Assembly (NCBI RefSeq): GCF_988242995.1
Contig: NZ_OZ547043.1
Strand: one strand, 5' to 3'
DNA length: 64,000 bases
A program made the position numbers and the translations under genes. This document shows positions 11,167 to 56,612 of this stretch, in pieces. Numbering within the stretch: the stretch's first letter is position 1; each line of letters opens with the position of its first letter. Below the pieces are notes generated by a model that saw only the letters and a program-made list of their open reading frames with translations, made no database searches and had not been told where the DNA came from.

Positions 11167-13530
11167 GTGGATATGGCAGCAGTAAAAATCTCAGGTGTGC
11201 TGAAAGATGGTGCGGGAAAACCAATACAGAACTGCACTATTCAACTGAAGGCAAAGCGTAACAGCACCACGGTACTGGTGAACACGGTGGCCTCTGAAAA
11301 TCCGGATGAAGCCGGGCGTTACAGCATGGATGTTGAGTATGGTCAGTACAGCGTCACCCTGCTGGTTGAAGGTTTTCCGCCTTCACATGCCGGGACCATT
11401 ACCGTCTATGAAGGTTCCAGACCAGGTACGCTGAATGATTTTCTCGGTGCCATGACGGAAGATGATGTCATGCCGGAGGCATTGCGTCGTTTTGAGGCAA
11501 TGGTGGAAGAAGCGGCACGCAACGCCGAAGCCGCCTCTCAGAGCGCAGCAGCGGCAAAGAAATCCGAAACTGCAGCGGCATCATCGAAGAACGCGGCGAA
11601 AACCTCAGAAACAAATGCAGCTAACAGCGCACAGGCGGCAGCGTCCTCGCAGACTGCATCGGCAAACTCCGCGACAGCAGCCAAAAAATCAGAAACCAAC
11701 GCGAAAAATAGCGAGACAGCCGCAAAGACGAGCGAAACCAACGCAAAGTCCAGCCAGACGGCAGCGAAAACAAGCGAAACGAATGCCAAAGCCAGTGAAA
11801 CTGCGGCAAAAAACAGCCAGGTTGCAGCAGCCCAAAGCGAGAGCGCGGCAGCCGGTTCTGCGACTTCAGCAGCTGGATCAGCAACTGCTGCGGCTAACAG
11901 CCAGAAAGCTGCGAAGACGAGTGAAACTAACGCAAAGTCCAGCCAGACGGCAGCGAAGACCAGCGAAACGAATGCCAAAGCCAGCGAAACTGCGGCGAAA
12001 AACAGTCAGGATGCAGCAGCCCAAAGCGAGAGTGCTGCAGCTGGTTCTGCCACTGCATCAGCCAACAGTCAAAAAGCAGCAAAAACCAGTGAAACCAATG
12101 CAAAGACAAGCGAGACTGCAGCGGCGAACTCGGCGAAAGCATCCGCTGCAAGCCAGACCGCTGCAAAAGCAAGTGAAGACGCAGCCAGAGAGTATGCAAG
12201 CCAGGCAGCAGATCCGTATAAATATGTCTTACAGCCGCTGCCTGATGTGTGGATACCGTTTAACGATTCACTGGATATGATTACGGGCTTTTCGCCATCA
12301 TATAAAAAGATTGTTATTGGTGACGACGAAATAACGATGCCTGGCGACAAGATTGTTAAGTTTAAACGTGCATCGAAAGCAACCTATATTAACAAATCTG
12401 GTGTGTTGACAGAGGCTGCCATTGATGAGCCACGATTTGAACGTGATGGCCTGCTTATTGAGGGGCAAAGAACTAATCTTCTGCTTAATTCAACAAATCC
12501 ATCTAAATGGAATAAGTCAGGCAATCTGGAACTCACAGAAATATCCACGGATTCTTTTAATTTTACTTATGGGAGATTTACTGTAAAAGATACTCTTATT
12601 GGTCAGACAAGTGCTATTAATATCGTAACGATTTCTGGCAGTAAAGGGTTTGATGTCACAGGTGATGAAAAATATGTGACCATTTCATGCCGTGTAAGAA
12701 GTGATGTTGAAAATATAAGGTGTCGTTTAAGATTTGAACACCATGATGGTTATACTTACACTTTTTTGGGAGATGCTTACCTCAATTTATCAACACTTGT
12801 AATTGATAAAACTGGTACTGCTGCAGACCGTATTATTGCAAAGGCTGTAAAAGATGAGGTTACTGGTTGGATTTTCTATCAGGCTACAATTAATGCACTA
12901 GATACAGAGAGCATGATTGGTGCGATGGTTCAATACGCTCCTGTAAAAGGTTCAGGTACAGCATCTGGAGACTATCTGGATATCGCAACTCCACAAGTGG
13001 AAGGTGGATCAAGTGCTTCGTCATTTATTGTAACTGATATAACTGCAAGCACTCGCGCAAGCGATATGGTGACAGTCCCAATCAAGAATAACCTTTATAA
13101 TCTTCCTTTTACGGTTCTTTGTGAGGTACATAAGAACTGGTATAAAACGCCAAATGCAGCACCGCGTGTTTTTGATACCGGCGGTCATCAAACCGGAGCG
13201 GCTATTATTCTTGGCTTCGGTCGTTCAACAGATTACGACGGATTTCCTTATTGTGATATAGGTTTGGCTAACAGACGGGTAAACGAAAACGCATCGCTTG
13301 AAAAAATGGTTATGGGGATGCGTGTAAAGTCAGATCAGTCTACGTGCTCAGTAAGTAACGGGCGTATATCCAGCGAAAAGAAAGCCACATGGTCCTATAT
13401 TCAGAACTCCGCAATTATCCGTATTGGAGGCCAGACTACAGCCGGGTTGCGTCATTTATTTGGTCATGTCAGGAATTTCAGAATATGGCACAAGGCATTG
13501 ACTGATGCTCAGATGGGGGAGTCAATCTAA
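11167..13530 (+). CDS. stf: Side tail fibre protein (Stf-like) with a replaced C-terminal receptor-binding region
   Basis: 787 aa; N-terminal region with Ala/Ser/Thr-rich KTSETNAK-type repeats typical of Stf; the C-terminal ~400 aa are markedly AT-richer by eye and end in a motif (GHVRNFRIWHKALTDAQM) reminiscent of ConA/LamG-like lectin folds. Confidence 0.8.
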   Translation: MDMAAVKISGVLKDGAGKPIQNCTIQLKAKRNSTTVLVNTVASENPDEAGRYSMDVEYGQYSVTLLVEGFPPSHAGTITVYEGSRPGTLNDFLGAMTEDDVMPEALRRFEAMVEEAARNAEAASQSAAAAKKSETAAASSKNAAKTSETNAANSAQAAASSQTASANSATAAKKSETNAKNSETAAKTSETNAKSSQTAAKTSETNAKASETAAKNSQVAAAQSESAAAGSATSAAGSATAAANSQKAAKTSETNAKSSQTAAKTSETNAKASETAAKNSQDAAAQSESAAAGSATASANSQKAAKTSETNAKTSETAAANSAKASAASQTAAKASEDAAREYASQAADPYKYVLQPLPDVWIPFNDSLDMITGFSPSYKKIVIGDDEITMPGDKIVKFKRASKATYINKSGVLTEAAIDEPRFERDGLLIEGQRTNLLLNSTNPSKWNKSGNLELTEISTDSFNFTYGRFTVKDTLIGQTSAINIVTISGSKGFDVTGDEKYVTISCRVRSDVENIRCRLRFEHHDGYTYTFLGDAYLNLSTLVIDKTGTAADRIIAKAVKDEVTGWIFYQATINALDTESMIGAMVQYAPVKGSGTASGDYLDIATPQVEGGSSASSFIVTDITASTRASDMVTVPIKNNLYNLPFTVLCEVHKNWYKTPNAAPRVFDTGGHQTGAAIILGFGRSTDYDGFPYCDIGLANRRVNENASLEKMVMGMRVKSDQSTCSVSNGRISSEKKATWSYIQNSAIIRIGGQTTAGLRHLFGHVRNFRIWHKALTDAQMGESI

Positions 13531-13811
13531 TGAAAGATTTAACACTCAAATTTGCAGACAGGGCCGACTTTTCGGCCTTTATGGATAGCATTGGCTATTA
13601 TGATGACGAGTCGATGCAGGATGATATTCTTATTGACGTGATAGGTAACGTGTACAAAGAAACCGGAGAACTGACTGAAGATGGCGAACCGGTATGTGTT
13701 AAGGAAGACGGATATTTTGTAAACGTGCGCATCATTAATGATGCAAAAAAATCGTCAATATTCGATGAATACGCGGTTGTAGTTGAACATCAACTTCGTG
13801 GCTGGATGTGA
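13530..13811 (+). CDS. Hypothetical acidic 93-aa protein; possible tail-fibre chaperone
   Basis: ATG overlaps the stf stop (TAATG), suggesting translational coupling; no family recognised. Confidence 0.4.
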   Translation: MKDLTLKFADRADFSAFMDSIGYYDDESMQDDILIDVIGNVYKETGELTEDGEPVCVKEDGYFVNVRIINDAKKSSIFDEYAVVVEHQLRGWM

Positions 13812-13820
13812 GGGAGACAA

Positions 13821-14525
13821 ATGGCTACATCGACAGTAATTCCAGGAGACATCACCACGTTAAAGGGAGATGTCAGTAAAGCCAAGGAAGATATTTCCTC
13901 AATTAACGGAAAAGTATCAACGCTTCAGGCTGATATGACCAGTGCAAAGCAGGATATCAGCACCAGATACACAAAAACTGAAGTTGATAATAAGCTGAAA
14001 AACAAACTGGAAGTGAACGCTCTGGAAAGCGGTCGTTATGGTGGAGATTTTTACCCGTTGACTGGCCGTGAAGCGTTTTATTTGTGGGGATTGGGCACGA
14101 CTACAGCGGCGGCAAACCTTTATCTTAATCCTGACCCCGCAATTTCGTCTGTGCTGCGGTCAACATCGTCTATCCGCTATAAACATTCAGTAGAGACAAT
14201 AGATTCAGAGCACGCCGAACTCATTTTCAGGATGCGCCCTGTGTGGTACAGGTCACAATGCGAAAATGACAGGCGTGACTGGGGATTCTACGGATTGATT
14301 GCCGAGGAAGTAGGAGAAATTGCCCCTCAGTTTGTACACTGGCGACCAGCTAACGAAGATGATGCACCGGAAGCTATTTCCAGCAATGGCCTTGTTGCCG
14401 AAGGTGTAATGTACGAACGTCTGGTTGTTCCACTGATTCACCATATCCAGAAGCTGACTGAAAGAGTTGATGAACTTGAGTCAGAATTAAAGTTGTTATC
14501 CGTTTCCCGAAGCGATATCGGATAA
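13821..14525 (+). CDS. Short fibre-like protein: N-terminal coiled coil plus C-terminal intramolecular-chaperone (peptidase S74-like) domain
   Basis: 234 aa; heptad-repeat N-terminus; C-terminal region (RPVWYRSQ...WGFYGLIAEEVGEIAPQFV...MYERLVVPLIHHIQKLTERVDELESEL) matches, from memory, the self-cleaving chaperone domain of endosialidase and T5 L-shaped tail fibres. Confidence 0.5.
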   Translation: MATSTVIPGDITTLKGDVSKAKEDISSINGKVSTLQADMTSAKQDISTRYTKTEVDNKLKNKLEVNALESGRYGGDFYPLTGREAFYLWGLGTTTAAANLYLNPDPAISSVLRSTSSIRYKHSVETIDSEHAELIFRMRPVWYRSQCENDRRDWGFYGLIAEEVGEIAPQFVHWRPANEDDAPEAISSNGLVAEGVMYERLVVPLIHHIQKLTERVDELESELKLLSVSRSDIG

Positions 14526-14535
14526 AGGAGGAGTA

Positions 14536-14829
14536 ATGGATATAACACCTTTCCTTCATGCGCTTTGTGCTGTGGCTGCGCAGCTACTGATTGGTCTTTT
14601 TACCGGGAACTGGGCTTACGGGGCGATAGCCGGTTGTACGTTCTTCATTGCGCGTGAACACACCCAGGCAGAATATCGCTGGATCGAAATGTTCGGGCAT
14701 GGCAAGCGAATGAATATGCCGTGGTGGGGCGGTTTTGATCCGCGCGCGTGGGATGTGGCAAGCCTGATGGATTTTGCTGTGCCGGTGGTGGCGTGTCTGC
14801 TGGTCTGGCTGTTGGTTAATCGTGGGTGA
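14536..14829 (+). CDS. Hypothetical small membrane protein
   Basis: 97 aa with two to three hydrophobic segments; GC-rich coding sequence; function unknown. Confidence 0.35.
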   Translation: MDITPFLHALCAVAAQLLIGLFTGNWAYGAIAGCTFFIAREHTQAEYRWIEMFGHGKRMNMPWWGGFDPRAWDVASLMDFAVPVVACLLVWLLVNRG

Positions 14830-14839
14830 AAAAAGGTGA

Positions 14840-14968
14840 GCTGTATATGCAACGGAGGAAGAAACCCCGTTGCTGGAAGCCTGGAAAAAGTATCGGATGC
14901 TGCTGAACCGTGTTGATACATCAACTGCACCTGATATTGAGTGGCCTACGAACCCTGTCAGGGAGTAA
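14840..14968 (+). pseudogene. tfa: 3' remnant of a tail fibre assembly gene (tfa), lacking start and N-terminal part
   Basis: Frame-2 translation gives ...[36 protein letters not shown], which matches the conserved C-terminus of lambda/P2-type Tfa proteins as I recall it; an in-frame stop lies immediately upstream (14837-14839). Confidence 0.55.
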
Positions 14969-15180: not shown

Positions 15181-16038
15181 CTAATTGGGTGATGACAAAT
15201 CCTGTGTATGGGTGTTTCCCTTTGTGCGTGCGTTGATGCTGGTAACGGTGAACGTCATGATGAACACAACCGCGAATAAGACGACAATCGTCGGAGCTGG
15301 TGCACTGTCGATAAAAAAGGACAACCAGACACCAGTCATTGACACTATTACCGATATGCCAATCGCCAGTAGGAGCGCAATATGAAAGCGTTGTGTCAGG
15401 AGTACCGCAATGGCGCCAGGCGCAATGAGCAGAGAAATGGAGAGAATGATACCTACCGCTTTCAGCGTCGCCACAATGGTCAGAGAGACCATGCACAGCA
15501 GCCCATAATGCAGACATCTCGTATGCAAACCGCTTACCTGCGCCTGTTGATAATCAAAGCTGAACAGCAAAAAATCCCGCCATTTTACGCTAATAACAAG
15601 TGTAACCAGCCCGGCAATAATCACCGTCTGGATTATATCGCCGATGGTTACCCCGAGCATGTCGCCGAAAAGAATATGGTCAAGATGTACGTCTGGTTTG
15701 ACTGCAATATACAAGATCAGACCTGCGGCAAACATGCCAGAAAAAACAATCCCCATCACTGTATCTTGCTTGATTCGGCTGTTGTCTTTCAGGTATCCCG
15801 TCGCCACCGCGCAGAATACTCCGGCGACGAATGCCCCTGTAGCCAGAGGTAACCCCAGAATCCAGGCAAGCACGATGCCAGGAAAAACCGCATGACTCAT
15901 CGCGTCACCCATCAGTGCCCAACCTTTCAGGACCAGAAAGACCGACAGCAGCGCACAGGGTATGGAAACTACCAGTGAAATCAGCAGTGCGTGACTCATA
16001 AAGGTGAACTGCAGTGGCTCCAGTAATAATGCCATCAT
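15181..16038 (-). CDS. sitD: Mn/Fe ABC transporter permease SitD
   Basis: 285-aa polytopic membrane protein of the ABC-3 (ZnuB/MntB) type; last gene of a four-gene operon with overlapping stop/start codons. Confidence 0.8.
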   Translation of the reverse strand: MMALLLEPLQFTFMSHALLISLVVSIPCALLSVFLVLKGWALMGDAMSHAVFPGIVLAWILGLPLATGAFVAGVFCAVATGYLKDNSRIKQDTVMGIVFSGMFAAGLILYIAVKPDVHLDHILFGDMLGVTIGDIIQTVIIAGLVTLVISVKWRDFLLFSFDYQQAQVSGLHTRCLHYGLLCMVSLTIVATLKAVGIILSISLLIAPGAIAVLLTQRFHIALLLAIGISVIVSMTGVWLSFFIDSAPAPTIVVLFAVVFIMTFTVTSINARTKGNTHTQDLSSPN

Positions 16039-16892
16039 GAGCGATCCTCCAGCGCTTTATGCGCACGCCGACGATTTGCCAAAAGCCCATGGGTGGGCGC
16101 AAATACAAATGCTAAAAGAAACAGCAGTGTCTGCGCCACCACGATGATTCCACCTGTCGCGCCGTCCAGAAAGTAACTGACCCACGCGCCGAGGAAACTG
16201 GTTACACTGCCAATAGTTACAGCAATTATGAGCAGGCGGGGAAAACGATCGGTTAACAACCATGCTGTTGCACCGGGAGTCACCACCAGACAGATCACCA
16301 GAAAGGCACCAACCGTTTGCAGCGCCGCAACGGTCGAAACCGACAGCAGGGTGAAGAAGAGGATTTTTAATCTGCCCGGATGCAATCCAATAGCACGAGC
16401 GTGATTCTCGTCGAAAAAGGTCACCATAAGATCTTTCCATTTGAAAAAAAGCACGATGATCGAGAGAATGCCAATGATAGTGAGTTGCAGGATATCCGCC
16501 GGATCGATTGCCAGAATATTGCCCAGGACGATGGTCTGAATGTTCACGGATGTCGGGTTCAATGACACCATAAACAGCCCCAGGCCAAAAAAGGAGGAGA
16601 AGATCAGGCCGATGATGGCATCTTCTTTTAAGCGAGTGCGTTGGTTAAGAAACAGCATGCTGCCCGCTGCCAGTCCGCCGGAAAAGAAGGCTCCCAGAGA
16701 AAACGGAAGCCCCAGCATATATGCCCCCGCAACACCCGGGACAATAGAGTGCGACAGCGCATCGCCAATCAGCGACCAGCCTTTTAGCATCAGATAGCAT
16801 GACAGGAAAGCGCAGAGACCGCCGACCATCGCCGAGACCCACATCGCATTGAGCATATATTCATAGCTGAAGGGTTCCAGTAGCACGTTCAT
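16035..16892 (-). CDS. sitC: Mn/Fe ABC transporter permease SitC
   Basis: 285-aa polytopic membrane protein; overlaps sitB and sitD by 4 nt each. Confidence 0.8.
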
Positions 16893-17716
16893 CTTGCTTC
16901 CCCCTGCACCGCTGACGGTCGATGTGCCACAAAAGGGTGTTCATCGTCAGTAATAATGCTTTCTTCCGAGCCGTTAAGTGTGACATGGCGCAGTACGCCG
17001 CTAAAAGCCAGCTCCAGGTTCTCGGCTGTAAAAGTGGTGTCTGTCGGCCCGCTTGCCAGGACGGTGCCTTTGACCATGACCGTATAATCGCAAAATGTCG
17101 TGACTGAGCCGAGATTGTGCGTTGAGACAAGCATCGTCTTGCCTTCCGCGCGTAACTCCCTCAACAGGCTGATGATTTTCGCTTCGGTTTTCACATCAAC
17201 GCCCGTAAAAGGTTCATCCAGCAGGATCACATCACCCTGCTGTGCAATCGCTCTCGCCAGAAAGACGCGTTTCTTTTGTCCACCGGAAAGCTCGCCGATT
17301 TGTCGATGGCGAAAATCCACCATATCGACACGTTCCAGCGCATCGGTGACAATCTGACGATCCCTCTTTTTGGCTATACGCAACATACCCATGTGCCCAT
17401 AGCGGCCCATCATCACCACATCTTCCACTAGTACAGGAAATGACCAGTCAACCTCTTCTGACTGAGGGACGTAGGCAACCAGGTTTTTCTGTAGCGCCTG
17501 TCGCGTGGGAATACCCAGAACAGATATCTTTCCGCTGGTCAGACGCACAAATCCCATAATCGCTTTAAACAACGTCGATTTTCCGGAACCGTTTACCCCA
17601 ACCAGAGCGGCAATAGATCCACTTGGTACTGTGAAGGATGCATCGCGCAGTGCTGTGTGCCCGTTACGCCAGGTGACAGTAACATCATTAACGACAATGC
17701 CCGCAGATTGCATCAT
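16889..17716 (-). CDS. sitB: Mn/Fe ABC transporter ATP-binding protein SitB
   Basis: Walker [10 protein letters not shown], signature LSGGQKKR, Walker B ILLDEP. Confidence 0.85.
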
Positions 17717-18630
17717 TATTTCTCCCTTTTCCCGGCTTTAATTCCCTGTACCAGCGTACTGGTAGTAACCTTCAGAAGGTCGATATACGTAGGTACCGGG
17801 CCGTTTTCTGTGCTCAGGGAATCGACATAGAGTACACCGCCGTAGTGCGCGCCGGTTTCACGCGCAACCTGACGCGCTGGTTTATCGGAAATCGTACTCT
17901 CGCTAAAGACTGCCGGGATATGATTTTTCTTCACCATATCAACAACCTTACGTACCTGCTGCGGCGTGCCTTGTTGATCGGCATTAATCGGCCACAGATA
18001 AAGCTCTTTTAGCCCCAAATCGCGTGCGAGATAAGAAAAAGCCCCTTCACTGGTGACCATCCATCGCTGATTCTCAGGGAGTTCAGCAATCTGCTTACGC
18101 AGGGGGGCAAGGGTTTGGGTAATCTTGGCTTTATAAGTATCGGCATTACGTTGGTAGGTTTGTGCATTTGCCGGATCGTATTTTATCAACGCATCACGAA
18201 TATTATCGACGTAAATCAGAGCATTATCTGGCGACATCCAGGCATGGGGGTTAGGTTTGCCCTCATAGGGGCCTTCAGTGATCCCTACTGGCGTCACACC
18301 CGAAGAGACAATTACTTCTGGAACCCCATTAAGATGCTGGTAAAAGCGTTGGAACCACAATTCCAGATTCATACCATTGGCGAGAATCAGTTGTGCCCCC
18401 TGCGCACGTTTAATATCGCCAGGGGTAGGCTGATACTCATGAATTTCTGCACCGGGCTTGGTTATGGATGAGACTTCTGCAGCATCTCCAGCCACGTTTT
18501 TGGCCATATCTGCGATGATGGTAAATGTTGTAATGACCTTGAATTTTTCAGTTGCACTCGCCTGAAATGCGATCGAGCAGGTGAGGGCGAGGCACCCCAA
18601 GAGCATGGTTACTTTTTTTATTGAGTACAT
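17716..18630 (-). CDS. sitA: Periplasmic metal-binding protein SitA (cluster A-I substrate-binding protein)
   Basis: 304 aa with a signal peptide; first gene of the operon; MntR and Fur boxes lie upstream. Confidence 0.85.
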
Positions 18631-50120: not shown

Positions 50121-53100
50121 ATGCAAAGGAAAACTTTATTGTCGGCCTGTATTGCATTAGCTCTGAGTGGTCAGGGTTGGGCGGCAGATATCACAGAGGT
50201 AGAAACCACCACAGGTGAAAAGAAAAATACTAATGTGACTTGTCCGGCAGATCCAGGAAAACTCAGTCCGGAAGAGCTTAAACGCTTACCCTCTGAATGC
50301 ACCCCTTTAGTCGAACAAAACCTGATGCCATGGCTTGCCACAGGCGCTGCTGCGTTAATCACGACCTTAGCCGTAGTGGAACTAAACGACGATGATGATC
50401 ATCATCATCGCAACAATTCTCCACTCCCACCGACGCCCCCTGATGATGATTCAGACGACACTCCAGTGCCCCCAACTCCTGGCGGAGATGAGATAATACC
50501 GGACGTTCCGGATGATACGCCTACACCTCCCAAACCGATTTCGTTTAATAATGACGTTATTCTCGATAAAACAGAAAAAACGTTAACTATTCGCGATTCA
50601 GTTTTTACTTATACCGAGAATGCTGACGGGACTATTTCTCTGCAAGATAACAGTGGTCGTAAGGCAACGATTAATCTTTGGCAGATTGATGAAGCGAATA
50701 ATACTGTTGCCCTTGAAGGTGTGAGCGCAGATGGCACAACAAAGTGGCGATATAATCACAACGGTGAGCTTGTTATAACGGGTGATAATGCCACAGTAAA
50801 CAACAATGGCAAAACCACCGTTGACGGTAAAGACTCCACCGGCACGGAAATCAACGGTAATAACGGAAAAGTTATCCAGGACGGCGATCTGGATGTCAGC
50901 GGCGGCGGTCACGGCATTGATATCACCGGCGACAGCGCGACGGTGGATAACAAGGGCACCATGACCGTCACCGATCCGGAGTCCATCGGTATTCAGATCG
51001 ACGGCGACAAGGCGGTTGTTAACAACGAAGGCGACAGCACCATCAGCAATGGTGGCACCGGCACACAGATTAACGATGATGATGCCACGGCGAATAACAA
51101 CGGCAAAACCACCGTTGACGGCAAGGATTCCACCGGTACAGAAATCAACGGTAATAACGGGAAGGTTATCCAGGATGGCGATCTGGATGTCAGCGGTGGC
51201 GGTCACGGGATTGATATTACCGGCGACAGCGCAACGGTGGACAACAAGGGCACCATGACCGTCACCGATCCGGAGTCCATGGGGATCCAGATCGACGGCG
51301 ACAAGGCCATCGTCAATAACGAAGGCGAGAGCACCATCACCAACGGCGGCACCGGTACGCAGATTAACGGTGATGACGCCACGGCGAACAACAACGGCAA
51401 AACTACCGTTGACGGTAAAGATTCCACCGGTACAGAAATCAACGGTAATAACGGAAAAGTGATTCAGGGCGGCGATCTGGATGTCAGCGGCGGGGGCCAC
51501 GGCATTGATATCACCGGTGACAGCGCGACGGTGGATAACAAGGGCACCATGACCGTTACCGATCCGGAGTCCATCGGTATCCAGATCGACGGCGACAAGG
51601 CGGTTGTCAATAACGAAGGCGACAGTTCCATCAGCAACGGCGGCACCGGTACGCAGATTAACGGAGATGACGCCACGGCGAACAACAGCGGCAAAACCAC
51701 CGTTGACGGTAAAGACTCCACCGGCACGGAAATCAACGGTAATAACGGAAAAGTTATCCAGGACGGCGATCTGGATGTCAGCGGCGGCGGTCACGGCATT
51801 GATATCACCGGTGACAGCGCAACGGTGGACAACAAGGGTACCATGACTGTCACCGATCCGGAGTCCATCGGTATTCAGATCGACGGCGACAAGGCCATCG
51901 TCAATAACGAAGGCGACAGCACCATCAGCAACGGCGGCACCGGCACACAGATTAACGGTGATGACGCCACGGCAAACAACAACGGCAAAACCACCGTTGA
52001 CGGTAAAGATTCCACCGGTACGGAAATCAACGGTAATAACGGAAAAGTGATTCAGGACGGCGATCTGGATGTCAGCGGTGGCGGTCACGGGATTGATATT
52101 ACCGGTGACAGCGCGACGGTGGATAACAAGGGCACCATGACCGTCACCGATCCGGAGTCCATGGGGATCCAGATCGACGGCGACAAGGCCATCGTCAATA
52201 ACGAAGGCGAGAGCACCATCACCAACGGCGGCACCGGCACGCAGATTAACGGTGATGACGCCACGGCGAACAACAACGGCAAAACTACCGTTGACGGCAA
52301 GGATTCCACCGGCACGGAAATCAACGGCAATAACGGAAAAGTTATCCAGGACGGTGATCTGGATGTCAGCGGCGGCGGTCACGGCATTGATATTTCTGGC
52401 GATAATGCCGCCGTCGATAACAAAGGCAATATGACCGTCACGGACGCAGACTCGATCGGTGTACTGATCAATGGCGACAACGCGACACTTGCCAATACTG
52501 GTGATGTGGATGTCAGTAATTCAGCGACGGGATTTGCTATTACCAGCGACGAGGGGAAAATCTCCCTCGCGGGAAGTATGCAGGTCGGTGATTTTTCAAC
52601 AGGGCTGACATTAACTGGCGATAATAATAGCCTGACAATGGCAATGCAGGATCTTAATGTCGTTGGTCAGAAAGCTACAGGTATTAACGTCTCCGGTGAT
52701 GCCAACACAATTGATATAACTGGTAATATTCTGGTTGATAAAGATCAGAGCGCAGACAATGCGGCAGAGTATTTTTATGACGCTTCCGTGGGCGTAAATG
52801 TCAGTGGTCATAATAACAATGTGACACTGGATGGTAAATTAACGCTTGTTGCGGATGGTGAAACTACCACACGTGATGTCTCGAATTTTGATGGTAGCCA
52901 GGAAAATATTTCTGGTCTTATTGTTTCCGGTGATGGTAACAACATCAATCTGAATGGCGGGATTGCATTTGTTGGTGAAATAAATGCGCTGACCGATGGT
53001 TCAGCCATTGCTAACAAACGGACTTTCTTCGGTAATACGCCACTTATTGGTATTGATGGTGAATCGAAGGTATATCTGAATGGTGACTCAACGATCAGTG

Positions 53101-56100
53101 GTGATCTGCAACTAGGATATGCAAGCCTTATCCAGTTAAAAAATAAAGCAGCTATTGAGATTGGCAGTGAAGCTACTTTCAATATGCGGGATATTGAAAA
53201 TTATGATCATTACTATGCACAAACACCACAGATTATAAAGGCAGAAAGTAGCTCTGAGGTCATAAATAACGGTAATGTTGATATCTGGAATATCAGTTTT
53301 GCTGGTATCTTTGGCGAAAATACCACAGGTATCAATAACGGGAATATCACACTTTCTCTGTATGATTATGCCTCAACTAATACGCCAGCACCGGAACCAG
53401 ATAACACGGCCTTCTTGACCTCTAACGGCGGCAGCGCAGTAAACAAAGGGGTAATTACCTCAAAAGTAATGGAGCAACATAGCGTTGTTAATATGGCTGC
53501 ACTCACGGGGTCAACGGATCAGCGCGTGTTTAATAACAGCGTAGCAAGCATGATGGGGATGGAGGCGTATAATAAAGGCTCTGTTCTCAATGCCGAAGAT
53601 GCTGTCATTGATATGTATGGACGCGGTAGCATTGGCATGTTAGCCATCGATAACTCAACGGCGGATAATGCAGGCAATATTACGGTGGATACGTTATGGA
53701 TTGATGACAATGACACCACCAGTTTGCATACCGATCTTCCGGGGGCAACGGCAAAAGATTATGGCGTTGGTATGGCAACCGGGACAGACACCGGGGGTGG
53801 CGCTCGTAACAACGCTATTGCGACCAACCTGGAAGGTGGTGTAATTACTGTATATAACGCAGGTGCCGGTATGGCCGCCTACGGTAACAGTAATATGGTT
53901 ATTAACCAGGGAATCATTAACCTCGAGAAAAATGCAGATTACGATGCAAACCTGGGTAGTAATACGCTGGTAGGGATGGCAGTGTATAAAGGTGCTACGG
54001 CAATAAACGACCAAACTGGTGTAATCAATATTAATGTTGATACGGGCCAGGCGTTTTATAATGATGGTACAGGCATTATCCTCAACTATGGTGAGATTAA
54101 TCTCAACGGAGCGGAAATTGATAGCACCGACTCTCATTATGGTGCTCCTGCAGAGAATCTGGAACTGTTATCTGAATTGAGTGCCAGTGGAGAGAACATT
54201 ACAAAAACAGTTATCCGAGATGGCTTTGTTACCATTAAACCGCTGGCTAATTATGGTACAGAAATACTGAACGGCGATGTCGATGCCAACCTATGGTTAT
54301 ATAACGAGGATAAGGCCAGCCTGACAGTTAATGGTGATTTGAATATTGTCCAGGGGCTGGAAAACAGCGGGAGCATGGATGCCGACAAGCTTACTGCCAA
54401 TGCCAGTGTTTACAATCGCGCCTCGGGCAGTATGACAACCGAACTGTTAATGTTAAAAGGCGGGTCTGCCTTCTTCAATGAGGGAAGCTTTAGCGGAGTA
54501 ATTAGCGGTGATAGTTATAAACAAAACGTTGTAAATACGGGGGAGATGACAACTGTCACAGATGGTAGTGCCTTAATTAACGGCAGTTTCGTACTTTATA
54601 ATGAAGCCGGTTCAACGCTTACAAATAGCGGCAATGCTATTGCGGGAGGGGAAAATGCCATCGTTAATATCACACGCACCAGTGATTCTCTTTCACAGGT
54701 TAACCGCGGAAAAATTACCGCCACAAACGGTTACAGTGCGATTAAAACTGCCAGCACAGCCTCTAACAGCAACGGCAAATGGATTTGGAATACAGAAACC
54801 GGTGTAATTAATGGTATCAATCCAGATGCTCCACTGATTGATTTAGGTCGCGGGTATAATTTTGCTAACGCCGGAACAATTAATGTTCAGGGTGATGGTT
54901 CAGTTGCTATTAGCGGAGGCACCACCAGCTATACTGTTCAGTTAGTGAACAGCGGCACAATTAACGTGGGTACTGAACAGGGCAAAGCAGATGGAAGCAA
55001 CGGTGAAGGTCTGATTGGCATCAAAGGAAATGGTTCTGCAACAACGATTAATAATACTAAAGACGGTGTCATTAACGTTTATGCAGATAATTCATGGGCG
55101 TTTGGTGGTTCCACTAAAGCGATTGTGAATAATGGGATAATCAACCTGTTGTGTAATATTGGTTGCGAGATTTATGCGCCAAATACCACAGGGACGAGAA
55201 ACAGTCAGGATGGAACTGCGGATATAATCGTACCGGTCGCTTCTGCGACGCCTGGGCAAGGTAATGTTCCTGCGGCACCAGTCAATGCTGTAAGTCAGCA
55301 AAAACTTACCAATTACACTATTGGTACTAATAGCGACGGAAGTTCCGGCACCTTGAAAGCCAATAACCTTGTTATCAGTGACAACGTCAAGGTAAATACT
55401 GGCTTTAGTGCAGGAACTGCTGATACTACCGTGGTGATTGATGATGTTTTCAAAGGTGAAAATATCAGCGGCGCGGAGAATATCACTTCCTCTTCAGTTG
55501 TCTGGAACGCTAAAGGCAGTACCGATGCCAGCGGCAACGTTGACGTCACTATGAGCAAAAACGCTTATACCGATGTGGCGACCGATGCTTCGGTGAATGA
55601 CGTCGCGAAAGCACTGGATGCGGGTTACACCAACAACGAGCTGTATACCAGCCTGAACGTCGGCACGACTGCCGAACTGAACAGCGCCCTGAAACAGGTC
55701 AGCGGTAGCCAGGCGACCACGGTATTCCGCGAAGCGCGTGTGCTCAGCAACCGCTTTAGCATGCTGGCAGATGCCGCACCGAAAGTGGGTAACGGTCTGG
55801 CGTTCAACGTGGTGGCGAAAGGCGATCCGCGCGCGGAGCTGGGGAACAATACCGAGTACGACATGCTGGCACTGCGTAAAACCATTGACCTGAGTGAAAG
55901 TCAGACCATGAGTCTGGAGTACGGTATCGCTCGTCTCGATGGCGACGGTGCGCAGAAAGCTGGCGATAATGGTGTTACAGGCGGTTACAGCCAGTTCTTT
56001 GGCCTGAAACATCAGATGTCCTTCGACAATGGCATGAACTGGAACAACGCATTGCGTTATGACGTTCACAACCTTGACAGCAGCCGTTCGATTGCATTTA

Positions 56101-56612
56101 GCAACACGAACAAAACTGCTGATACCGACGTGAAACAGCAGTACCTGGAGTTCCGCAGCGAAGGAGCGAAGACTTTCGAACCGAGCGAAGGGCTGAAGGT
56201 CACACCATATGCGGGTGTGAAACTGCGTCACACACTGGAAGGTGGCTATCAGGAGCGCAATGCCGGAGACTTTAACCTGAATATGAACAGTGGTAGCGAA
56301 ACGGCGGTGGACAGCATCGTCGGGCTGAAACTGGACTATGCAGGTAAAGACGGCTGGAGCGCTAGCGCTACGCTGGAAGGCGGGCCGAACTTGAGCTACG
56401 CGAAGAGCCAGCGCACAGCAAGCCTGGCAGGTGCAGGCAGTCAGCACTTTAACATCGATGACGGTCAGAAGGGCGGCGGCATCAACAGCCTGGCAAGTGT
56501 CGGCGTGAAGTACAGCAGCAAAGAAAGTTCGCTGAATCTGGATGCGTACAACTGGAAAGAGGAAGGCATCAGCGACAAAGGCGTGATGCTGAACTTCAAG
56601 AAAACGTTCTAA
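50121..56612 (+). CDS. ydbA: Large autotransporter adhesin-like protein, uninterrupted
   Basis: 2163 aa: signal peptide, Pro/Asp/His-rich linker, about six and a half tandem 98-aa repeats, long beta-helix-like passenger, and a C-terminal beta-barrel translocator ending in F. Confidence 0.85.
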   Translation: MQRKTLLSACIALALSGQGWAADITEVETTTGEKKNTNVTCPADPGKLSPEELKRLPSECTPLVEQNLMPWLATGAAALITTLAVVELNDDDDHHHRNNSPLPPTPPDDDSDDTPVPPTPGGDEIIPDVPDDTPTPPKPISFNNDVILDKTEKTLTIRDSVFTYTENADGTISLQDNSGRKATINLWQIDEANNTVALEGVSADGTTKWRYNHNGELVITGDNATVNNNGKTTVDGKDSTGTEINGNNGKVIQDGDLDVSGGGHGIDITGDSATVDNKGTMTVTDPESIGIQIDGDKAVVNNEGDSTISNGGTGTQINDDDATANNNGKTTVDGKDSTGTEINGNNGKVIQDGDLDVSGGGHGIDITGDSATVDNKGTMTVTDPESMGIQIDGDKAIVNNEGESTITNGGTGTQINGDDATANNNGKTTVDGKDSTGTEINGNNGKVIQGGDLDVSGGGHGIDITGDSATVDNKGTMTVTDPESIGIQIDGDKAVVNNEGDSSISNGGTGTQINGDDATANNSGKTTVDGKDSTGTEINGNNGKVIQDGDLDVSGGGHGIDITGDSATVDNKGTMTVTDPESIGIQIDGDKAIVNNEGDSTISNGGTGTQINGDDATANNNGKTTVDGKDSTGTEINGNNGKVIQDGDLDVSGGGHGIDITGDSATVDNKGTMTVTDPESMGIQIDGDKAIVNNEGESTITNGGTGTQINGDDATANNNGKTTVDGKDSTGTEINGNNGKVIQDGDLDVSGGGHGIDISGDNAAVDNKGNMTVTDADSIGVLINGDNATLANTGDVDVSNSATGFAITSDEGKISLAGSMQVGDFSTGLTLTGDNNSLTMAMQDLNVVGQKATGINVSGDANTIDITGNILVDKDQSADNAAEYFYDASVGVNVSGHNNNVTLDGKLTLVADGETTTRDVSNFDGSQENISGLIVSGDGNNINLNGGIAFVGEINALTDGSAIANKRTFFGNTPLIGIDGESKVYLNGDSTISGDLQLGYASLIQLKNKAAIEIGSEATFNMRDIENYDHYYAQTPQIIKAESSSEVINNGNVDIWNISFAGIFGENTTGINNGNITLSLYDYASTNTPAPEPDNTAFLTSNGGSAVNKGVITSKVMEQHSVVNMAALTGSTDQRVFNNSVASMMGMEAYNKGSVLNAEDAVIDMYGRGSIGMLAIDNSTADNAGNITVDTLWIDDNDTTSLHTDLPGATAKDYGVGMATGTDTGGGARNNAIATNLEGGVITVYNAGAGMAAYGNSNMVINQGIINLEKNADYDANLGSNTLVGMAVYKGATAINDQTGVININVDTGQAFYNDGTGIILNYGEINLNGAEIDSTDSHYGAPAENLELLSELSASGENITKTVIRDGFVTIKPLANYGTEILNGDVDANLWLYNEDKASLTVNGDLNIVQGLENSGSMDADKLTANASVYNRASGSMTTELLMLKGGSAFFNEGSFSGVISGDSYKQNVVNTGEMTTVTDGSALINGSFVLYNEAGSTLTNSGNAIAGGENAIVNITRTSDSLSQVNRGKITATNGYSAIKTASTASNSNGKWIWNTETGVINGINPDAPLIDLGRGYNFANAGTINVQGDGSVAISGGTTSYTVQLVNSGTINVGTEQGKADGSNGEGLIGIKGNGSATTINNTKDGVINVYADNSWAFGGSTKAIVNNGIINLLCNIGCEIYAPNTTGTRNSQDGTADIIVPVASATPGQGNVPAAPVNAVSQQKLTNYTIGTNSDGSSGTLKANNLVISDNVKVNTGFSAGTADTTVVIDDVFKGENISGAENITSSSVVWNAKGSTDASGNVDVTMSKNAYTDVATDASVNDVAKALDAGYTNNELYTSLNVGTTAELNSALKQVSGSQATTVFREARVLSNRFSMLADAAPKVGNGLAFNVVAKGDPRAELGNNTEYDMLALRKTIDLSESQTMSLEYGIARLDGDGAQKAGDNGVTGGYSQFFGLKHQMSFDNGMNWNNALRYDVHNLDSSRSIAFSNTNKTADTDVKQQYLEFRSEGAKTFEPSEGLKVTPYAGVKLRHTLEGGYQERNAGDFNLNMNSGSETAVDSIVGLKLDYAGKDGWSASATLEGGPNLSYAKSQRTASLAGAGSQHFNIDDGQKGGGINSLASVGVKYSSKESSLNLDAYNWKEEGISDKGVMLNFKKTF
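50798..52560 (+). repeat. In-frame tandem repeats inside ydbA: 294-bp unit (98 aa), ~6.5 copies
   Basis: Recurring unit NNNGKTTVDGKDSTGTEINGNNGKVIQDGDLDVSGGGHGIDITGDSATVDNKGTMTVTDPESIGIQIDGDKAVVNNEGDSTISNGGTGTQINDDDATA with a few substitutions per copy. Confidence 0.85.

Follow-up and report, generated by a model that had tools for sequence, protein, structure and literature searches.

What role can a phage tail gene play when its product consists of a short coiled coil, a small conserved tip and a folding domain predicted to cut itself away? The question is raised by an open reading frame (ORF) at positions 13821-14525 (+ strand) of a 64,000-nucleotide stretch of contig NZ_OZ547043.1 (NCBI RefSeq assembly GCF_988242995.1), which is referred to below, at its full length, as the window. 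The ORF begins with ATG and encodes 234 amino acids (aa), with exactly the boundaries given in a preliminary description of this DNA. The window is E. coli DNA, 99% identical across the stretch to extraintestinal pathogenic E. coli (ExPEC) strains such as 3059, S88 and APEC O1, and the ORF is found where the tail operon of a lambdoid prophage ends, behind the genes for a side tail fibre (Stf) and a 93-aa protein.

Initial, reversible recognition of the host depends on the side or lateral tail fibres, which are also the parts most often exchanged when phages or phage-derived particles are given a new target. By examining the domains of the 234-aa protein, the selection acting on them and the genes that accompany its homologues in other phages, we hypothesize that it serves as an optional subunit at the distal end of a side tail fibre made of several parts, a reading that its sequence and gene context make probable.

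The C-terminal chaperone domain

The C-terminal half of the protein (aa 116-234, positions 14166..14522, + strand) is an S74 intramolecular-chaperone (IMC) domain, whose release is predicted to follow folding of the trimer. The preliminary description had proposed such a domain and put it at about 130 aa; the domain itself is borne out, and it measures 119 aa. Pfam Peptidase_S74 (PF13884) matches residues 116-172 over model positions 1-57 of 58 with i-E 2.7e-5, at a modest score of 24.8 bits that was taken without reference to the family's gathering threshold (PF13884 is also the precomputed family of P0001, the 95%-identical cluster representative of the protein). A phmmer search of the whole library returned 3575 cluster representatives at E<=1e-3, and in the best 150 of these 3575 matches the common region is C-terminal, or nearly so, in proteins of fibre size. 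Against PDB sequences, phmmer found the C-terminus of a 1076-aa L-shaped tail fibre (8hqz_d, E 1.3e-6) and the ICA domain of MyRF (7dc3, E 0.013). PHROG tail-fibre families also match the C-terminal half, and the best PHROG, phrog_3299 (E 1e-139), accommodates the whole protein on positions 1147-1384 of its 1385-position profile. The AlphaFold2 (AF2) monomer, built on an alignment of 112 homologues, has block-mean pLDDT values of 94-98 between residues ~121 and ~230 and shows there the IMC fold, a mixed alpha/beta domain with a long coiled-coil helix at its end; the top structural matches of this domain are all solved IMC domains.

The predicted autoproteolytic site (positions 14163..14183, + strand) reads T115-S116-S-I-R-Y-K121, with the scissile bond between Thr115 and Ser116 (Ser116 codon 14166-14168) and the general base, Lys121 (codon 14181-14183), five residues after the serine. 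S114, T115, S116 and K121 are invariant in the 112-sequence alignment, and R113, S117 and Y120 nearly so. In residues and spacing the site matches Thr1263-Ser1264/Lys1269 of the T5 fibre pb1, in which Ser1264, activated by Lys1269, cuts the Thr1263-Ser1264 bond only after the trimer has folded (PMC4690869). Profile match, Ser/Lys dyad and fold thus agree in placing the domain in the IMC family. Both checks that the preliminary description had proposed for this domain, a significant profile match to Peptidase_S74 and a Ser/Lys dyad with its cleavage-site serine in an alignment, came out in its favour, and neither of the findings that it had named as fatal, a missing dyad or the lack of a significant S74 match, was made.

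The rod, the tip and the remnant question

Ahead of the chaperone lie a coiled-coil rod and a tip. The rod (aa ~11-62, positions 13851..14006, + strand) is modelled as two helices, 11-49 and 52-62, and between I11 and I46 its a and d positions carry 11 hydrophobic residues in a row (I L V A I I V L M A I). Heptads therefore span only ~40-50 aa, where the preliminary description had seen a heptad repeat of about 100 aa. Among homologues, 30, 37, 44 or 65 aa separate the N-terminal IPxDI motif from the EVDxKLK motif that closes the rod; these lengths are all 2 mod 7, so the rod changes length only in whole heptads, which we read as the signature of a structural coiled coil that keeps both of its ends in register.

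The tip (aa 66-115, positions 14016..14165, + strand) is a conserved, non-helical segment of ~50 aa that would form the mature C-terminal end after cleavage, and its residues T93, T94, A98, N99 and R113 are nearly invariant. Neither the Pfam scan nor the AF2 model revealed a recognisable receptor-binding domain in the protein, and no enzymatic domain or large receptor-binding domain is apparent. To that extent the preliminary description was right; what it missed is a small body between coiled coil and chaperone, the conserved tip. The homologous counterpart of the tip in the long side tail fibres P0065, P0067, P0071 and P0072 is the stretch of ~65 residues that leads up to the cleavage site, and tip and IMC together share 49-59% identity with the far C-terminal end of long Stf proteins in which the module is present in cis. 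Two of these, P0065 (735 aa) and P0067 (958 aa), begin with a lambda-type Stf N-terminus like that of the window and end with a tip and chaperone 57-59% identical to those of the 234-aa protein. The tip-chaperone module exists both fused in cis and as a separate gene, and the cis homologues of the tip, together with the whole-heptad rod, indicate that the N-terminal half is structural rather than purely catalytic.

Such a protein might be thought a decaying, functionless remnant of a longer fibre gene, as the preliminary description had suggested as one possibility, and the alignments at first sight agree: the match to long fibres (539-1243 aa) is confined to their C-terminal ~200 residues, and its place on phrog_3299 is the very end of a long profile. 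The comparison with full-length homologues that the preliminary description had recommended does confirm this correspondence, but it also shows that the 234-aa protein has a conserved N-terminus of its own that the long fibres lack, a point against decay. At megablast sensitivity, 745 of 5426 complete E. coli genomes carry the gene, at 926 places in all; it is full length in 739 genomes and is annotated as an intact coding sequence in the records listed among these matches. A strong Shine-Dalgarno sequence, GAGGGAG (positions 13810..13816, + strand; read directly from the letters), precedes the ATG by 4 bases and shares bases with the 93-aa stop codon.

Purifying selection acts on all three parts of the protein. 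In comparisons with PhiR49_1, BL21, strain 8178 and the lytic phage PeterMerian (a fifth copy, from strain 3059, is near-identical and uninformative), dN/dS is 0.16-0.23 for the whole protein and stays under 0.4 in each part: 0.16-0.38 in the rod, 0.05-0.17 in the tip and 0.15-0.23 in the IMC. In three of the four informative comparisons the value for the tip is the lowest, and the low ratio holds against PeterMerian too, at a dS of about 2.3. Elsewhere there are stand-alone homologues of 221-268 aa, among them proteins of 231 aa and 55-60% identity in dozens of lytic Drexlerviridae phages, and lytic phages rarely keep dead genes. Because of the 739 intact copies, the dN/dS values, the stand-alone homologues in lytic phages and the whole-heptad changes of the rod, a remnant is excluded for practical purposes; we rejected the pseudogene reading on conservation and dN/dS and regard it as extremely improbable. 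In BL21 (NZ_CP060121.1; locus L009, 586-5009) the stf gene itself is cut by an IS3-family element and annotated as a pseudogene, and the 93-, 234- and 97-aa genes downstream of it are intact.

The N-terminal handle and the fibre cassette

The first 15 residues of the protein, MATSTVIPGDITTLK (positions 13821..13865, + strand), form a putative docking peptide, or handle. Its consensus, M-[AV]-T-x-T-[VIN]-I-P-x-D-I-T-x-L-K, heads genes that follow homologues of the 93-aa gene and whose bodies, of 98-576 aa, are otherwise quite different. These handle-sharing proteins were found by reading the genes downstream of the 93-aa homologues; a word-indexed protein search with the N-terminal 65 aa of the 234-aa protein retrieved only fragments of the same gene. 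The PHROG profiles tell the same story, as the first 32-33 residues match the starts of phrog_4563 (346 positions) and phrog_19752 (207 positions), which have different bodies. The third gene of the series encodes 234 aa in the window and in PhiR49_1 (lambdoid), 231 aa in PeterMerian (Drexlerviridae), 574 aa in IrisVonRoten (Gp24) and 576 aa in L6jm (both T5-like), 384 aa in VogelGryff (gp24; Seuratvirus) and 351 aa in JenP1 (Nonagvirus). KarlBarth (Dhillonvirus; locus L007, 4770-5649) has instead a 98-aa handle gene, gp30, which overlaps a following 196-aa gene for a 'putative tail fiber protein' without an IMC; this pair may represent one distal fibre that has been split or frameshifted, or else a distal unit of two proteins.

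The two genes that precede the handle gene are homologous from phage to phage as well. The first encodes the Stf-like proximal side tail fibre (787 aa, positions 11167..13530, + strand), which has a lambda-type N-terminal tail-attachment domain (Pfam phage_tail_N on aa 5-134, E 1e-66), an Ala/Ser/Thr-rich repeat shaft and a C-terminal head of ~438 aa (aa 350-787, positions 12214-13527, + strand) that matches NCBIfam GTA_spike_fiber over aa 430-631 (E 1.1e-15). Homologues of the head span 'PLPDVWIPFNDSLD' to '...RIWHKxLTDxQ', and we take the end of the head to be LamG/lectin-like. A galectin-like domain has been described at the C-terminus of the Stf homologue of IrisVonRoten (Humolli et al., 10.1101/2024.09.12.612763). 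This head, and not the 234-aa protein, may be the main receptor-binding part of the fibre. In 10 of 10 further loci, drawn from lambdoid phages, Drexlerviridae, T5-like phages, Dhillonvirus, Seuratvirus and Nonagvirus, the fibre gene that precedes a 93-aa homologue has a ~438-aa C-terminus 41-72% identical to the head in the window. Alternative-frame ORFs also lie inside stf (for example 11462-12280, + strand, 272 aa, and shorter ones on both strands); they are most likely artefacts of repetitive, compositionally biased Ala/Ser/Thr-rich sequence.

The second gene encodes the 93-aa protein (positions 13530..13811, + strand; phrog_1361, E 8e-47), the start of which overlaps the stop of stf (TAATGA). 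No Pfam, NCBIfam or PADLOC match was found for it. Homologues are present in 183 phage records, covering lambdoid phages, Drexlerviridae, Dhillonvirus, Nonagvirus/Seuratvirus, T5-like Markadamsvirinae and rV5-like phages, and in E. coli the gene occurs (at megablast sensitivity) at 1527 places in 989 genomes, against the 926 places of the 234-aa gene. It is kept even where the third gene is absent, and its distribution marks the 93-aa protein as the constant partner of the Stf C-terminal head; it is a candidate fibre-junction adaptor or head-specific chaperone.

Across at least five phage lineages the handle gene always stands directly after this pair of fibre head and 93-aa gene. In all seven phages that appear in both search tables it lies ~16 nt downstream of the 93-aa gene, and the order stf, 93-aa gene, third gene recurs in eight other phage and prophage loci. 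This constancy bears on the idea that the 234-aa protein is an independent short fibre or whisker, attached elsewhere on the tail (at the tip complex or baseplate) and not to Stf. Many phages do carry several fibre sets, and the N-terminal motif, though it points to a conserved attachment function, does not by itself identify the partner. The phages that share the cassette (lambdoid, T1-like, T5-like, Dhillonvirus and Queuovirinae) have very different tail tips, however, and still the handle gene is found only behind the same pair, so that the common partner would be the cassette itself and not the tail. An independent whisker is in our view very unlikely.

The third gene is not obligatory. 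Three lambdoid phages, mEp460_4F5, Lambda_2E9 and PhiR40_1, have a fibre head 46-68% identical to that of the window and a 92-aa counterpart of the 93-aa gene, without a third gene. The head of PhiR40_1 is 68% identical to that of the window, whereas that of PhiR49_1, which does have the third gene, is only 57% identical; hence the third gene is optional and independent of the subtype of the head. The handle-bearing gene belongs, as its third member, to a mobile cassette. We found no paper that describes the cassette of fibre head, 93-aa protein and handle protein as such, or the function of the 93-aa protein; its description here is a modest new observation and not a new kind of system.

Distal subunit or assembly factor

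We propose the following course of events for the distal subunit. The C-terminal chaperone would bring three copies of the protein into register, template the folding of the ~50-aa tip and zip up the heptad coiled coil. Once the trimer had folded, Ser116, activated by Lys121, would cut the Thr115-Ser116 bond and the 119-aa chaperone would leave. The mature product would be a trimer of 115-aa chains, each made up of the docking peptide, a rod of about six heptads and the small distal tip. Its docking peptide would bind the C-terminal head of the 787-aa Stf, the 93-aa partner, or both, and the docked stub, carried into the virion, could add a second, short contact with the cell surface through receptor binding by the tip.

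The lateral fibres of these phages may consist of one polypeptide or of several (Maffei et al., 10.1101/2021.03.08.434280), and IrisVonRoten Gp24, a 'T-shaped' protein with two predicted receptor-binding domains and a C-terminal IMC, is predicted by AlphaFold-Multimer to attach to the proximal fibre Gp22 (10.1101/2024.09.12.612763). The 234-aa protein has the position expected of a distal subunit, after a proximal fibre and its small partner, and the shared N-terminal attachment peptide. The short accessory fibre of the preliminary description is, in this light, plausible and in keeping with the gene context.

The same gene position can be read differently, as that of a trans-acting chaperone that assists assembly of the upstream Stf in place of a lost Tfa (the lambda-type tail fibre assembly protein) and is absent from the virion. 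The gene does sit where lambda has tfa and adjoins a decayed tfa remnant; homologues are named 'putative lateral tail fiber chaperone' or 'chaperone of endosialidase'; and the chaperone domain makes up half of a protein whose other half has no recognisable receptor-binding domain. Nevertheless, no Tfa family is among the Pfam, NCBIfam or PHROG matches of the protein, the tfa remnant being a separate downstream fragment. Homologous Stf heads with the 92-aa gene occur without the third gene, as in PhiR40_1, the head of which is closer to that of the window than is the head of PhiR49_1. In T5 pb1 the chaperone acts on the stretch joined to its N-terminus, and cleavage requires that this stretch be folded (PMC4690869). 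The Stf C-terminus, with its match to a GTA head-spike-fibre family, shows no likeness to the sequence of the tip. That the rod keeps its heptad phase and the tip has the lowest dN/dS would be unexpected if only the IMC mattered. The handle, finally, is common to large fibre proteins, the 574-aa Gp24 of IrisVonRoten and its 576-aa counterpart in L6jm. Taken together, these observations make a trans-acting chaperone unlikely, and in annotation the gene should be named neither a pseudogene nor a pure 'chaperone'.

A more speculative reading can be set beside these. The protein could be a self-removing cap or assembly factor that docks on the Stf head through its N-terminal peptide, whose chaperone serves either in trans or as a timing device, and of which a 115-aa coiled-coil stub stays behind, with the 93-aa protein as a new type of fibre-junction adaptor. 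We consider this distinctly unlikely; if it held, the tip, with ~50 aa per chain, would be either among the smallest receptor-binding modules of phage fibres (to our knowledge few are as small) or a regulator that masks and unmasks the binding site of the Stf head.

Several points weigh against the distal-subunit reading that we prefer. The BASEL authors labelled homologues 'putative lateral tail fiber chaperone', and the gene occupies the place of lambda tfa. The chaperone, whose Pfam score is the modest one given above, is both the largest part of the protein and the one modelled with most confidence, and the mature part would be tiny, at 115 aa. The tip is poorly defined in the monomer model over residues 66-100, with pLDDT 43-51 for residues 71-100, and a linker-joined trimer model (three copies of residues 36-234 with GGGGSx10 linkers and a 12-row concatenated alignment) was unusable, at a mean pLDDT of 39.8 and a pTM of 0.36. 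Presence in the virion, cleavage and contact with Stf are all predictions from sequence. In the literature we found nothing specific on virion proteomics or function of the stand-alone homologues, which appear only in annotation mentions, a structure atlas and the BASEL papers.

The operon and its surroundings

The genes stf, 93-aa and 234-aa follow one another with an overlapping junction (stf/93-aa) and a 9-nt junction (93-aa/234-aa), and the next gene, for a 97-aa protein, is preceded by AAGGAGG. A scan of the + strand from stf to the 97-aa gene brought up neither promoter-like nor terminator-like signals in between, which is weak evidence that they form one operon. In strain 3059, the locus of which is near-identical, the RefSeq gene order is J, Lom, a 'prophage tail fiber N-terminal domain-containing protein', a hypothetical protein, the equivalent of the 234-aa protein (named 'tail fiber domain-containing protein', WP_000235978.1), a second hypothetical protein and a tfa pseudogene.

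The 97-aa hydrophobic protein (positions 14536..14829, + strand; phrog_1443, E 6e-59) closes the fibre operon. It has no significant Pfam match, and none of the three proteins of 234, 93 and 97 aa matched anything in NCBIfam or PADLOC. It is probably a membrane protein, with apparent membrane-spanning segments, and might be a superinfection-exclusion or receptor-masking protein. Its gene is much more widespread than the 234-aa gene (3923 places in 1905 of 5426 E. coli genomes), and in phages without the 234-aa gene a gene for a 95-97-aa hydrophobic protein stands directly 3' of the 92-aa gene.

Further downstream lies a 3' remnant of tfa, recognised in translation (positions 14849..14968, + strand); its equivalent in strain 3059 is a RefSeq pseudogene with the N-terminus missing. 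This remnant suggests that the present fibre-head cassette replaced an older module of stf 3' end and tfa by recombination. Four ORFs of 285, 285, 275 and 304 aa (positions 15181-18630, - strand) abut the fibre module and appear to be a sitDCBA manganese/iron ABC transporter operon; Lambda_2E9 (LR595860) has named sit genes at the same position. In strain 8178 this position holds cdtABC and in strain 3059 dinI, which marks the region downstream of the 97-aa gene as a hot spot for cargo genes (morons). Elsewhere in the window, positions 50121-56612 (+ strand) hold a very large ORF of 2163 aa.

Comparison with known systems

The locus presents a portable cassette of a fibre head, a 93-aa partner and an exchangeable distal protein with a 15-aa handle and a self-removing folding domain, common to lambdoid prophages and to T1-like, T5-like, Dhillonvirus and Queuovirinae phages. 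The 234-aa protein would also be a convenient minimal scaffold on which to study the docking of the handle and the form of the smallest chaperone-dependent tip, and on which to graft new receptor-binding domains.

One of the nearest known counterparts is T5 pb1 (PDB 4uw8; PMC4690869), which, like the 1076-aa L-shaped tail fibre 8hqz, ends in an intramolecular chaperone as the 234-aa protein does. Unlike the 234-aa protein, pb1 is a fibre of 1396 aa with a bullet-shaped receptor-binding domain of ~290 aa before the chaperone, where the former has only ~50 aa, and its chaperone is the end of the main fibre and not part of a separate gene product. The solved chaperone domains of K1F endoNF, the GA-1 neck appendage and MyRF (PDB 3gw6, 3gud and 7dc3) share the fold and the logic of the Ser/Lys dyad, but they follow the triple beta-helix stalk of an enzyme, an appendage and a transcription factor, respectively, and are only 10-26% identical to the 234-aa protein. 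The assembly proteins of the lambda Tfa and Mu type have the same position downstream of stf and no sequence similarity.

The same three-gene cassette is found in the Tequintavirus IrisVonRoten as Gp22, Gp23 and Gp24. Gp22 shares 53% identity with the whole Stf of the window and 65% with its head, Gp23 shares 38% with the 93-aa protein, and Gp24 has both the N-terminal MxTKTVIPxDITKLK motif and a C-terminal IMC with its dyad in SDSRLK. Gp24 differs in its 574 aa and two predicted receptor-binding domains (Gp12-like and T5-like), where the 234-aa protein has a rod and a ~50-aa tip. Closer still are the 231-aa Drexlerviridae orthologues, such as PeterMerian bas05_0029 ('putative lateral tail fiber chaperone') and Jahat_MG145 ('chaperone of endosialidase'), which are 55-60% identical over the full length and have the same architecture and cassette (fibre 58%, small protein 48%). 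Their rod is two heptads shorter, their tip has a 4-aa insertion and their carriers are lytic T1-like phages; the role of the protein there is likewise putative.

Among the loci examined, the 234-aa protein is the shortest chaperone-bearing form, with ~50 residues between rod and cleavage site. The preliminary description called its architecture unusual, which is not borne out. The protein would work much as do the distal proteins of lateral fibres in T5-like phages and small siphoviruses. RefSeq already names the protein for its tail fiber domain, GenBank has the chaperone names given above for its homologues, and it resembles both the fibres of JakobBernoulli and RuthEpting ('coiled coil, T5-like tip, IMC') and class TC7 of a structure atlas of tail fibres, defined by an N-terminal coiled coil and a C-terminal S74 domain (10.1101/2024.10.28.620165). 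The ORF is no broken gene; its product is most likely a regular component of a modular fibre of a familiar type.

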